The notes: a model not told the origin generated them from the letters alone. Counted from the first letter of the stretch, positions 1,821-5,277 are shown. The stretch is DNA of 5,625 bases from a virus (IMGVR_UViG_2660238352_000014), one strand, 5' to 3'. Numbers and translations are program-made.

Positions 1821-2036
1821 ATGTACCAGATGGAAAAAATCACAACAGGTGTGTCATACACCACGTCAGCGGTGGGAACGGGCTACTGGTTCCTGCAGTT
1901 GCTGGACAGGGTTTCCCCGTCTCAGTGGGCGGCAATAGGCGTGCTGGGGAGTCTGCTGTTTGGGCTGCTGACATATCTGACTAACCTGTATTTCAAAATC
2001 AGAGAGGACCGTCGTAAGGCAGCGCGGGGAGAGTAA
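1821..2036 (+). CDS. S: Pinholin, phage 21 S21 family (71 aa; possible second start at Met4 giving 68 aa)
   Basis: By-memory near-identity to S21 over the core ([46 protein letters not shown]). Two TM segments, the first Gly/Ala/Ser/Thr-rich (SAR-like). SD GGGAGACGGGG precedes the ATG. Sits immediately upstream of a SAR endolysin. Confidence 0.9.
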
Positions 2037-2040
2037 GGCG

Positions 2041-2550
2041 ATGAATAAACAATACGAACTGGTTGTTAAAGGGATAAATAATTACCCGGATAAGATTACT
2101 GTTACTGTAGCGCTGGAAACGGGTGGGTATACGTCACTGTTGTTGCCAAATGTGGTGATTGATCTTGATCGTGTTGAAGGTGCCACGCTGGAATTTTACG
2201 AAGCTGAGGCGAAAAAGAAGGCGAAGCAGTTTTTCATGGATATTGCTGCCGGGTTATGTGAAGGGGATGAACAGTCACAGGAAAAGTGCCTTTGTTCCGA
2301 AGATCGGTATACCATACAAATTAACAATGCATATAACACGATACTGTCAGAAAAAGATGATATCGAATCACGCATTGAAAAACTGGAGAATTGCGTCGTT
2401 GAACTGAATAAAAAACTGTCGACGCTGATGCCTTCTGAAGATGCAAAAAAACGCCGCGATGAGCAGTTCGCGGCGTTTTACGATTATTGCATTGAAGTTA
2501 CTCGCAGGAATTTTGTGAAGGCTTTTGAGGAGAGTAAATCTCTTCAGTAA
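2041..2550 (+). CDS. Hypothetical protein (169 aa), inserted between holin and endolysin; N-terminal beta-rich region, C-terminal coiled-coil-like helices, three Cys (C-x11-C-x-C)
   Basis: ATG 4 nt after the holin stop, using the SD-like sequence at the holin 3' end. GC looks lower than flanking lysis genes (first 60 nt about 30% GC by hand count). No recognisable homolog. Confidence 0.6.
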   Translation: MNKQYELVVKGINNYPDKITVTVALETGGYTSLLLPNVVIDLDRVEGATLEFYEAEAKKKAKQFFMDIAAGLCEGDEQSQEKCLCSEDRYTIQINNAYNTILSEKDDIESRIEKLENCVVELNKKLSTLMPSEDAKKRRDEQFAAFYDYCIEVTRRNFVKAFEESKSLQ

Positions 2551-2869: not shown

Positions 2870-3403
2870 ATGAACGCAAAAATCAAATACGGCCTGTCAG
2901 CTGCTGTTCTGGCGCTGATTGCTGCAGGCGCGTCTGCTCCTCAGATACTTGACCAGTTTCTGGACGAAAAAGAGGGTAACCACACAACGGCATACCGTGA
3001 TGGTGCAGGTATCTGGACCATCTGCCGTGGTGCCATCATGGTGGATGGCAAACCTGTCGTTCCGGGCATGAAGTTGTCGAAGGAAAAATGCGACCAGGTT
3101 AACGCCATTGAGCGTGATAAAGCGCTGGCGTGGGTGGAGAAAAACATCAGAGTGCTGCTGACCGAACCCCAGAAAGCGGGGATCGCGTCATTCTGTCCGT
3201 ACAACATTGGTCCCGGTAAGTGTTTCCCGTCGACGTTTTACAGACGAATTAATGCTGGTGATCGCAGGGGAGCATGCGAGGCGATTCGCTGGTGGATTAA
3301 GGACGGTGGCAGAGACTGCCGTATTCGCTCAAATAACTGTTACGGTCAGGTATCCCGTCGTGACCAGGAGAGTGCGCTGGCGTGCTGGGGAATTGACAGA
3401 TAA
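2870..3403 (+). CDS. R: SAR endolysin (signal-arrest-release lysozyme, T4-lysozyme/GH24 fold, R21-like), 177 aa
   Basis: N-terminal weakly hydrophobic Gly/Ala-rich SAR domain (GLSAAVLALIAAGASAPQ). Catalytic triad spacing E-x8-D-x5-T in KEGNHTTAYRDGAGIWT. By-memory similarity to phage 21 R (..GVWT.C.G.., ..RINAGD..GACE.IRWW..). Paired with a pinholin. No canonical SD upstream of the ATG. Confidence 0.9.
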   Translation: MNAKIKYGLSAAVLALIAAGASAPQILDQFLDEKEGNHTTAYRDGAGIWTICRGAIMVDGKPVVPGMKLSKEKCDQVNAIERDKALAWVEKNIRVLLTEPQKAGIASFCPYNIGPGKCFPSTFYRRINAGDRRGACEAIRWWIKDGGRDCRIRSNNCYGQVSRRDQESALACWGIDR

Positions 3404-3492
3404 GCAGAATATTTTGCTGAAAAATGCGGTTTGCTCACACGGGCGGATAACACGAAATCCTGCGAACTGACAAAAACTAAGTGAATAAAAGT

Positions 3493-3533
3493 AAAAACCC
3501 CGTTTGTTGGCTGCAAGCGGGGTTTTGTGTTTC
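3493..3533. terminator. Rho-independent terminator, probably bidirectional, downstream of the endolysin gene
   Basis: Stem AACCCCG(TTTG)/(CAAG)CGGGGTT with a ~7-nt loop followed by TTTTGTGTTTC on the + strand; A-rich run upstream gives a U-tract on the minus strand as well. Confidence 0.65.
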
Positions 3534-3559
3534 TGACCTTGGATAAGGCAAGGGAGAAC

Positions 3560-3742
3560 ATGGAAAAGTATAAACGAATTCTGTTGAGGTTGACTATGAA
3601 AAACGGCCTTGAACTGAAAGCGCCTGTAACTGATGACATCAGCAGAGCACTGGCTTTTGCCATTAAGTGGGTGGCGGTCGGTGTTGCTGTGTCCCCGATG
3701 CTGTATGGGCTGGCAAAACTGGTCATTGCGTTGAAATCGTGA
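3560..3742 (+). CDS. Hypothetical small membrane protein (60 aa; basic N-terminus, C-terminal TM helix)
   Basis: ATG at 3560 preceded by AAGGGAGA. The ORF-track start at 3527 is a GTG inside the terminator U-tract and is unlikely. TM segment [28 protein letters not shown]. Confidence 0.45.
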
Positions 3743-3756
3743 AGGGAGGATTAAGC

Positions 3757-3888
3757 ATGTCAGACAAACTCATAACGCTGGCGAAGATCCTCTGTGTAAT
3801 TGTCGGCATTTCATTTTCACTAATGCTGGTTGCTCTTTTTCTTTCCATGGCCTGGATGATGTTGTCTTCGTCGGGGCTGCTGGGGTGA
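3757..3888 (+). CDS. Hypothetical small hydrophobic peptide (43 aa, single TM helix); its stop overlaps the Rz start (GTGA)
   Basis: Strong SD AGGGAGG 6 nt upstream of ATG 3757. TM segment [26 protein letters not shown]. The stop/start overlap with the next gene suggests translational coupling. Confidence 0.4.
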
Positions 3889-4358
3889 ACATAAACCGAA
3901 TGCTTTCCGCGTTTATCGTTATTCTGCTGGTGGCCTGTGGAGCGCTGTGGATGGCAACAGACCATTACCGTGATAACGCGATTACCTACAAAGCGCAGCG
4001 CGATAACAAAGCCAGTGAACTGAAGCTGGCGAACGCAACCATTACTGATATGCAGGTGCGCCAGCGCGATGTTGCTGCGCTCGATGCAAAATACTCGAGG
4101 GAATTAGCTGATGCGAGAGCTGAAAATGAAACTTTTCGCGCTGACGTTGCCGCTGGTCGTAAGCGCCTGCGTATCAACGCCACCTGTCCAGGTCCCGTGC
4201 GTGAAGCCACCGGCACCGCCCGCGTGGATAATGCAACCGGCCCCCGACTGGCAGACACCGTTACACGGGATTATTTCACCCTCAGAGAGCGGCTGATGAC
4301 GATGCAGAAGCAACTGGAAGGGGCGCAGGAATATATCCGTACTCAGTGCATTAAGTAG
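3885..4358 (+). CDS. Rz: Rz i-spanin (inner-membrane spanin subunit); start either GTG 3885 or ATG 3900
   Basis: By-memory strong similarity to lambda Rz ([46 protein letters not shown]...R.DVAAGR.RL.I.A.C...REAT....[33 protein letters not shown]). N-terminal TM helix followed by a coiled-coil periplasmic domain. Confidence 0.9.
3926..3933 (+). other. Chi site (5'-GCTGGTGG-3') inside Rz
   Basis: Exact octamer match on + strand. Confidence 0.6.
4111..4296 (+). CDS. Rz1: Rz1 o-spanin (outer-membrane lipoprotein spanin subunit), fully embedded in the +1 frame of Rz
   Basis: Signal peptide with lipobox LVVSAC (Cys20) followed by a proline-rich mature region ([30 protein letters not shown]) closely matching lambda Rz1 by memory. 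SD GAGGGA lies upstream of ATG 4111. Confidence 0.85.
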
Positions 4359-4944: not shown

Positions 4945-5277
4945 ATGAAAATGAAAAGAAATCTTCCGTTAATTATTTTGTTGTCTTCTCTGGTTATGGG
5001 CTGTACGCAACATAAAACAGATATGCCCCGACAGTTGGTTAAGGCATTACCACAATATCCGGCCTATGCAGCGGCAAATTATATAAAGGGACGGGTTGAT
5101 GTGAAGTTTGATATTGGTGCTGATGGTACTGTCACCCGAATTGAGTTTATCCGTTCAGAGCCGCACCATTTGTTTGATGAGCAGGTTGTAAAGGCGATGG
5201 CAAAATGGCGATTTGAGAAGGACAGGCCGTGTAAAGGCGTGAAGAAAACGTTTATCTTTAGTCCTTCTGCACCCTGA
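4945..5277 (+). CDS. Probable lipoprotein consisting of a stand-alone TonB C-terminal domain (TonB_C fold); start at ATG 4945 or 4951
   Basis: N-terminal signal peptide with lipobox-like LVMGC. The remainder aligns by eye with the E. coli TonB C-terminal domain: PQYPAYAAANYIKGRVDVKFDIGADGTVTRIEFIRSEPHHLFDEQVVKAMAKWRFEKDRP against TonB [60 protein letters not shown]. There is no TonB N-terminal TM anchor and no proline-rich spacer. Confidence 0.7.
   Translation: MKMKRNLPLIILLSSLVMGCTQHKTDMPRQLVKALPQYPAYAAANYIKGRVDVKFDIGADGTVTRIEFIRSEPHHLFDEQVVKAMAKWRFEKDRPCKGVKKTFIFSPSAP

Follow-up and report, generated by a model that had tools for sequence, protein, structure and literature searches.

In phage P2, a membrane-protein gene, lysA, is located between the endolysin gene K and the spanin genes lysB and lysC; it is non-essential and thought to tune the timing of lysis, and its product LysA, of ∼140 amino acids (aa), has several membrane segments. 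Antiholins of the dual-start kind (lambda S107, phage 21 S21-71) are products of the holin gene itself. Type I toxins are accompanied by cis-antisense RNAs, as in the SymE/SymR layout, Hok/Sok, TisB/IstR, and Ibs/Sib, and classic lambdoid morons, e.g., bor, carry their own promoter and a downstream terminator. The Mu releasin gp25, a member of the releasin family DUF2730 that has been found only in Mu-like phages, is a protein of 99 aa with an N-terminal membrane segment (N-out, C-in) and an acidic cytoplasmic domain of 73 aa (PMC9239132). Here, we have analyzed a stretch of viral DNA of 5,625 nucleotides (nt; IMGVR_UViG_2660238352_000014, in its whole length called the window), in which two small open reading frames, ORF1 and ORF2, are placed between the gene of the endolysin R, a lysozyme with an N-terminal segment of the signal-anchor-release (SAR) type, and the gene of the i-spanin Rz.

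ORF1 and ORF2 have been found to be genuine conserved genes under purifying selection, which are predicted to encode small membrane-type helical peptides. They are part of a set of peptide genes that is often reshuffled in the prophages of E. coli and Salmonella, and they show no specificity for the SAR/pinholin lysis system; the pair is independent of the lysis-cassette type, with three endolysin types, two holin sets, and additional non-lysis contexts observed. The existence of both ORFs was already known from hypothetical proteins and PHROG families, and they are of a known sort, small accessory membrane proteins of phage late regions; new are the selection on both ORFs, the independence of the lysis cassette, the mosaic array of paralogs, and a haplotype in which Rz has been left without its own start. 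Tentatively, and with confidence well short of even, we regard the genes as a portable cassette that is not essential and whose inner-membrane peptides would work on the cytoplasmic membrane late in infection, most plausibly by tuning the membrane or energization step on which the lysis time of any holin depends. The nearest positional analogue is P2 LysA, likewise a membrane protein encoded after the endolysin and before the spanin; however, ORF1 and ORF2 comprise 60 and 43 aa with one long hydrophobic helix each, and no sequence relationship has been found. The parts of the cassette in the window are the following:

3494-3526, no strand assigned: GC-rich terminator-like hairpin of 14 pairs, flanked by an A-run on its 5' side and a T-run on its 3' side (terminator scan)
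3527-3559, plus strand: conserved 33-nt leader with the Shine-Dalgarno (SD) sequence of ORF1
3560-3742, plus strand: ORF1, 60 aa, with an amphipathic basic helix at the N-terminus and a long hydrophobic one behind it (phrog_1115 match, selection analysis, AlphaFold)
3757-3888, plus strand: ORF2, 43 aa, a single very hydrophobic helix (phrog_4906 match, selection analysis, AlphaFold)

ORF1 extends from ATG at 3560 to a stop codon at 3740-3742, with the SD AAGGGAG at 3550-3556, and ORF2, the SD of which (GGGAGG) begins right behind this stop and is placed 7 nt before the ATG at 3757, ends with a stop codon at 3886-3888. Both are annotated by RefSeq as hypothetical proteins, the accessions WP_021566721.1 and WP_001280932.1 together covering the two. 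A preliminary description of this DNA had reported a terminator followed by ORFs of 60 and 43 aa with SD sequences between R and Rz, and all of these have been recovered at the places given there. The R-Rz junction, which it had described as interrupted, indeed differs from that of the K-12 prophages DLP12 and Qin, in which R overlaps Rz directly with no gene between them.

Conservation of the reading frames among homologous regions, which the same description had named as a check, is borne out by a low ratio of nonsynonymous to synonymous substitution rates (dN/dS) in the annotated frame only. From ∼190 fetched loci (some contigs twice), 36 unique ORF1 and 30 unique ORF2 DNA sequences have been obtained, for which the Nei-Gojobori dN/dS in the annotated frame is 0.23 and 0.31, respectively, as compared to 0.6-2.5 in the two shifted frames of the same strand, and the variable sites of ORF1 are distributed over the codon positions as 15/6/36. 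Between the two sequence classes of ORF2, dN/dS amounts to 0.27, a value that is reached by randomization of the substitutions in 0.05% of trials (p ∼0.0005), and an ATG start has been found in 147 of 147 full-length ORF2 copies. One may consider the ORFs as selfish or decaying filler, kept as terminator-carrying DNA and as a bridge to Rz, with functionless peptides: ORF2 is frameshifted in ∼10 of 85 SAR-type loci, its dN/dS within the window's own sequence class rises to 0.46, and truncated copies of ORF1 exist that have no start codon. This reading appears quite improbable regarding the purifying selection between the ORF2 classes, the intact ORF1 of 167 loci (dN/dS 0.16-0.23), and the persistence of the ORF1 family at ∼40-50% identity in unrelated genomic contexts. 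Two antisense shadow ORFs on the minus strand (3346-3726 and 3723-3965) have been rejected as real genes, as they match no PHROG family and extend over the terminator or the Rz start; dN/dS is worse in the ORF1 shadow than in sense (0.46 vs. 0.23) and about equal for ORF2 (0.34 vs. 0.31).

Profile matches of ORF1 to phrog_1115 (E = 1e-42), phrog_4493 (E = 3e-30), and phrog_3246 (E = 5e-19), and of ORF2 to phrog_4906 (E = 2e-23), concern function-unknown families throughout, and scans of both ORFs against Pfam, NCBIfam, and PADLOC have given nothing above noise. For ORF1, AlphaFold predicts a short, amphipathic, and basic helix (residues 2-16) and a long one (22-59) at a mean predicted local distance difference test (pLDDT) of 79, and the best 19-residue Kyte-Doolittle window of 1.9 is that of an Ala/Gly/Val-rich, moderately hydrophobic helix. 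ORF2 is predicted as one helix (2-42, mean pLDDT 88) with a best window of 2.9. Hydropathy and predicted helices thus agree with the two small membrane peptides of the preliminary description, including the basic N-terminus and C-terminal helix of the first. The net charge of ORF1 is +6 overall, and the positive-inside rule would place its N-terminus in the cytoplasm (N-in) and leave hardly any residue in the periplasm. Spanin features have been looked for in both peptides, in which neither a bridging periplasmic domain nor a lipobox is present; Rz and Rz1 are separately encoded.

A second in-frame start of ORF1, Met13 (3596), is invariant and has its own SD (GAGG), which yields a form of 48 aa, the length given in many database entries. 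Met1 and Met13 are both conserved, and in close relatives dN/dS is near 1 for codons 1-12 vs. 0.16 for codons 13-60. The 60-aa form is probably translated, because the extension at the N-terminus is retained in distant homologs, where conservative replacements occur (RQYKRILMRLT, KLYRKFFRMRLS, and RKYKRFFLRLS, the last in Sakai Sp4), and a dual start at Met1 and Met13 is possible. Such an arrangement, with a longer form carrying extra N-terminal basic residues, resembles the dual-start antiholins, but ORF1 is a separate gene without holin similarity and occurs together with unrelated holin families.

Full-length ORF1 has been detected in 1,043 of 5,426 complete E. coli genomes, and the O157:H7 strain ECP19-198 is one of the carriers of ORF1 (NZ_CP066759.1, around 1,986,867-1,987,193). 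Database searches have returned ∼120 clusters per ORF; nearly every one is from E. coli, and for ORF1, E. marmotae and Salmonella are represented as well. The host range is narrow (Escherichia, Shigella, Salmonella). In a scan of one genome per species, ORF1 has not been found at all and ORF2 only on one contig of 328 bp; the family is strain-level prophage cargo and not a species-wide gene. A search of 1.84 billion representatives with a hidden Markov model has yielded only 18 clusters of distant ORF1 homologs, which, as well as the D-type peptide described below, match the same PHROG families as ORF1. In ∼80 of the fetched loci, the gene order is S21 pinholin, SAR-type R, ORF1, ORF2, and Rz, and in at least 30 further distinct sequences it is Phage_holin_8, Phage_holin_3_7, an endolysin of the GH108+PG_binding_3 or M15 type, ORF1, ORF2, a lipoprotein of 60 aa, and Nu1. 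These two contexts are homologous to each other from the hairpin, with which the homology exactly begins, to about the end of ORF2.

This distribution bears on the function which the preliminary description had proposed from the neighboring genes, a releasin- or antiholin-like role tied to the SAR endolysin or the pinholin, in which the peptides control the exit of R from the membrane or the triggering of S21. Such a regulator would be well placed directly behind a SAR endolysin gene in a pinholin cassette, the Ala/Gly/Val-rich composition and only moderate hydrophobicity of the ORF1 helix would suit it, and the Mu releasin provides a precedent, in that SAR endolysins are set free by a membrane protein other than a holin (PMC9239132). 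As ORF1 and ORF2, gp25 is small, membrane-anchored, and encoded near a SAR endolysin gene; however, its architecture is the reverse of that of ORF1 with its basic N-terminus and C-terminal helix, ORF2 is nearly all helix, and a Pfam scan (E ≤ 1) has given no DUF2730 match for either. The proposed role is not supported by the comparison of contexts, in which the pair accompanies cytoplasmic-type GH108 and M15 endolysins with Phage_holin_8/Phage_holin_3_7, and ORF1 homologs have been found outside lysis cassettes. Moreover, at most ∼3-8 residues extend beyond the helix in either peptide, which leaves no periplasmic domain, unlike in T4 RI, and pairwise BLASTP of ORF1 and ORF2 against the holin S of the window has returned no significant match. 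We consider a dedicated regulator of the SAR endolysin or pinholin to be very unlikely.

The slot behind the endolysin has been found to hold a mosaic array of small one-helix peptide genes in varying order and number, sometimes behind an Ant-like gene. Apart from the ORF1 type, of which alternative N-termini occur, and the ORF2 type, the array includes peptides with the C-terminal sequence LIVAIKG, peptides of 28 aa with the C-terminal sequence AIRWW, and two more types (49 and 50 aa). The AIRWW peptide is a paralog of ORF1 in truncated form, and recombinants between ORF1 and AIRWW exist. In every case, the final gene of an array is joined to its downstream neighbor by GTGA, by TGAnATG, or across a gap of 4-8 nt. 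In prophage Sp4 of O157:H7 Sakai, a D-type ORF1 paralog, ECs_1094 (locus L202, 12615-12767, minus strand), is the sole gene between R and Rz, and in Sp5, the prophage of Shiga toxin (Stx) 2 of the same strain, an ORF2-type gene, ECs_5707 (L192, 12383-12529), is located between Ant and Rz, directly upstream of Rz. As a side observation, ECs_1094 is annotated with 37 aa, but alignment of the family points to a GTG start and a length of 50 aa. In two non-lysis contexts (L196, 4200-4504; L195, 505-737), the ORF1-family gene has one further hairpin or two and another small one-helix ORF behind it, hairpin and peptide gene repeating as tandem units, and one distant ORF1 homolog has been found in a tandem of small ORFs with a hairpin before each.

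The hairpin at 3494-3526 looks like a bidirectional intrinsic terminator and forms the 5' boundary of the conserved peptide cassette, as homology to other contexts begins exactly there. Its stem is preserved by differing sequences across contexts, and the A-run on its 5' side is invariant even where upstream homology stops. Between the hairpin and the ORF1 start, no sigma-70-like promoter has been detected on the plus strand in the five contexts scanned; therefore, transcription of the cassette must come from upstream. On the opposite strand, the following site has been identified:

3567-3596, minus strand: sigma-70-like match TAGTCA-18-TATACT in ORF1 codons 3-12, a candidate antisense-RNA promoter facing the hairpin

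In line with a type-I-toxin-like peptide, which the preliminary description had named as an alternative, ORF1 may be viewed as a toxin of a type I toxin-antitoxin-like system, in which a cis-antisense RNA of ∼75-90 nt, running from codons 3-12 to the hairpin, would cover the SD and the start codon. The site recurs at the homologous place in five contexts (the window, L097, L194, L199 with TATAAT, and L196 with a different -35 element and a spacing of 16 nt) and faces the bidirectional hairpin with its invariant A-run; the predicted antisense RNA of 85 nt folds with z = -3.7, and the stem variants 3539 T>C and 3552 G>A keep their pairing on the minus strand only. ORF1 codons 3-25 are near-invariant at the DNA level, and the sizes of 48 or 60 aa for ORF1 and 43 aa for ORF2, both helical and hydrophobic, fit the usual limit for such toxins (less than ∼60 aa). 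However, the match comprises only 9 of 12 positions, of which about one per region is expected by chance, and the hexamers fall on conserved codons (Tyr-Lys; Leu-Thr-Met) and on the SD of Met13, so that selection at the protein level can account for their conservation. In L195, the most distant homolog, the -10 element has been lost, and the hairpin and leader, when folded as a test of the antisense expectation, fold better as plus strand in 31 of 39 unique sequences. While the small hydrophobic peptide, the candidate antisense promoter in the 5' coding region, and the upstream terminator recall the SymE/SymR layout, ORF1 differs from type I toxins in that no promoter for its mRNA has been found in five contexts, the antisense RNA is only predicted, the gene is embedded in a late operon, and no family match exists, an Rfam scan of the whole window having given only a sub-threshold terminator-like match. 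Support for a type I system is weak and mixed, and such a system is rather unlikely. Quite improbable, too, is a variant suggested by the same sequence features, in which ORF1 would be an antisense-controlled toxic peptide, held silent in the lysogen by the upstream terminator and the antisense RNA and freed only when late transcription swamps the latter, and would act as a holin-independent, mobile membrane-depolarizing trigger or timer.

At the downstream end of the cassette, a GTG in the Rz frame (3885-3887) overlaps the TGA stop of ORF2 as GTGA; the sequence confirms this overlap, from which the preliminary description had derived a translational coupling of ORF2 to Rz. The start of Rz is ambiguous, however, since RefSeq places it at ATG 3900, which has no good SD and does not overlap, instead of GTG 3885. 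Other haplotypes read GAGGGGGAT-ATG-AAC-CGT at this place, whereas the window haplotype (∼60 loci) reads GGGGTGAAC-ATA-AAC-CGA-ATG, with ATA at 3891-3893 replacing the canonical ATG; GTGA is present in these ∼60 loci, and the GAGGGGGATATG start region of the other haplotypes is missing, by which both SD and ATG have been lost. Frameshifts of ORF2 have been observed only in haplotypes where Rz retains its own SD and ATG, and the shifted frame still ends as ATGA on the Rz ATG. Among the indirect evidence, this pattern is the strongest for a translation of ORF2 and for a dependence of Rz on ORF2 in the window haplotype. The coupling by GTGA is plausible for the window haplotype, in which the SD and ATG of Rz have been lost. 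Because the ORF2 stop overlaps the Rz GTG and Rz is without its own SD and ATG, ribosomes ending ORF2 would probably re-initiate on Rz, and ORF2 would have an additional role as a translational bridge to Rz in this haplotype.

Returning to the tentatively favored reading of a portable membrane-peptide cassette, the unit would consist of the hairpin, the leader, an ORF1-family gene, and zero to four further small peptide genes, and would be transcribed by read-through from upstream, which in the window would be the Q-antiterminated late transcript with S, R, and Rz/Rz1. Since the peptides would be made from the late transcript together with S, R, and Rz, the cytoplasmic membrane would contain them when lysis occurs. 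Placement in the late operon is supported by the common strand of ORF1, ORF2, and the flanking late genes, by the lack of a plus-strand promoter between the hairpin and the ORF1 start, by the presence of the pair in deposited phage genomes with K-12 or E. coli C as listed hosts, and by the position of the pair directly behind the endolysin gene in two unrelated lysis-cassette types, namely ∼80 fetched loci in which Rz comes after a SAR lysozyme and ∼36 distinct sequences in which the 60-aa lipoprotein comes after GH108 or M15. The peptides would most likely modulate the membrane step of lysis, e.g., the energization that sets the triggering time of any holin, and would probably not be partners of one particular endolysin or holin.

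Several observations weigh against this reading. The cassette is missing from the related functional cassettes of DLP12 and Qin and is therefore dispensable for lysis, its expression would, where no antitermination takes place, be limited by the terminator that immediately precedes it, and the pair occurs with both Lys-containing (MKSM) and Lys-free (MYQM) dual-start holins, with no link to antiholin status. The array is mosaic in members and copy number across the ∼190 loci, which is typical of accessory or conflict-related loci. Searches of the literature by accession, locus tag, and peptide string have revealed no relevant paper on ORF1 or ORF2, and the general lysis literature searched mentions neither. 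Distant ORF1 homologs are found behind tail-fiber and tail-fiber-assembly genes at prophage ends, where they adjoin host genes, and one is located upstream of tail genes, outside lysis cassettes; the homologs behind tail-fiber genes fit cargo as well as lysis genes.

Indeed, such last prophage genes next to the host chromosome occupy a classic cargo position, and the peptides may be moron-like cargo that benefits the lysogen or excludes other phages, a role already named as an alternative in the preliminary description, e.g., by blocking DNA entry or disturbing a host inner-membrane protein, with the R-Rz junction merely tolerating the insertion. To this reading, the patchy presence in close relatives, the mosaic paralog arrays, and the narrow host range contribute further, as do the terminators that bracket each unit in L195 and L196 and cargo-like neighbors such as the TonB_C lipoprotein, a PerC-family regulator, Bor, and the 60-aa lipoprotein. 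Patchy distribution, module junctions of the late region, and small envelope-located products are shared with the lambdoid morons, and Bor itself is annotated in Sakai Sp5; however, the terminator of ORF1/ORF2 is upstream, no promoter has been found, no terminator precedes Rz, and the last gene overlaps Rz. Expression in the lysogen is left unexplained by the lack of a coding-strand sigma-70-like promoter in the five contexts, the genes are locked in the window into a late operon between R and Rz, and PADLOC has given no match. Cargo of this kind remains a serious, if doubtful, explanation.

With full-length ORF1 in prophages of about one fifth of complete E. coli genomes, the peptides are common, medically adjacent, and uncharacterized. 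If they tune the timing of lysis, phage burst and the timing of toxin release by Stx phages would be affected; if they are exclusion factors or toxins, they would constitute a new small-protein family in prophage conflict systems. Leads for further work are the likely starts of ORF1-family genes and of Rz, the occurrence of a mosaic peptide array in the post-endolysin region, and the set of GH108 and M15 lysis cassettes without a recognizable spanin. In these cassettes (L097, 1648-3534; L092; L101; ∼30 others), no Rz/Rz1 has been found between the TerB-like gene and Nu1, and the 60-aa lipoprotein belongs to phrog_7528, a function-unknown family. Either these phages have no spanin, or the lipoprotein does an unrecognized outer-membrane step; ORF1 and ORF2 have been rejected as its i-spanin partner, since neither has a periplasmic domain.

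The 5.6 kb of the window represent the late region of an E. coli prophage that is lambdoid and resembles Stx phages. Prophages in a number of complete E. coli genomes match its segment 3404-3900 at 100% identity, and deposited phages (PhiR12_1 and relatives), for which K-12 or E. coli C is listed as host, match it at 99.8%. From its start, the window encodes a SASA esterase (C-terminus only), proteins with DUF1378 and DUF826, the S21-type pinholin, a DUF1327/YdfR-like gene, R, the peptide cassette, and Rz with embedded Rz1; behind these follow an ORF of 74 aa, the gene of a TonB_C lipoprotein, and, on the minus strand, a DUF3950 gene. The lysis genes and the gene placed among them are:

1821-2036, plus strand: S21-type class II holin (pinholin) with dual start MYQM (Pfam Phage_holin_2_1, E = 9e-33; PHROG holin families)
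2041-2550, plus strand: DUF1327/YdfR-like gene between holin and endolysin
2870-3403, plus strand: R, phage lysozyme with SAR-type N-terminal segment (Pfam Phage_lysozyme, E = 3.5e-23)
3885/3900-4358, plus strand: Rz, i-spanin (Pfam Phage_lysis, E = 1.8e-49)
4111-4296, plus strand: Rz1, o-spanin lipoprotein embedded in Rz (Pfam Rz1, E = 4e-20)

R has the Ala/Gly-rich N-terminal segment and the E-x8-D-x5-T motif of SAR endolysins. The dual-start motif of the pinholin (1821-1832) is MYQM, with no basic residue in the extension, and phage 21 and DLP12 have MKSM; the idea that the peptides stand in for the missing antiholin charge has been discarded, as the pair occurs with holins of either motif. 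An 86-aa ORF on the minus strand (2498-2758), which matches phrog_2572 (E = 4e-50), overlaps the DUF1327/YdfR-like gene tail-to-tail by ∼50 nt, and the two form a convergent pair within the lysis cassette. Downstream of the real Rz/Rz1, a lipoprotein of 109 aa (4948-5277) with a TonB C-terminal domain (Pfam TonB_C, E = 1e-14) matches phrog_1267, which is labeled "Rz-like spanin"; this label seems wrong, and a cargo gene is more likely. Finally, 24-60 nt just past the R stop (window 3403-3462) recur just past the 60-aa lipoprotein gene (L097, 3549-3608; L092, 3546-3569), and this repeat looks like a short boundary sequence for the exchange of modules.

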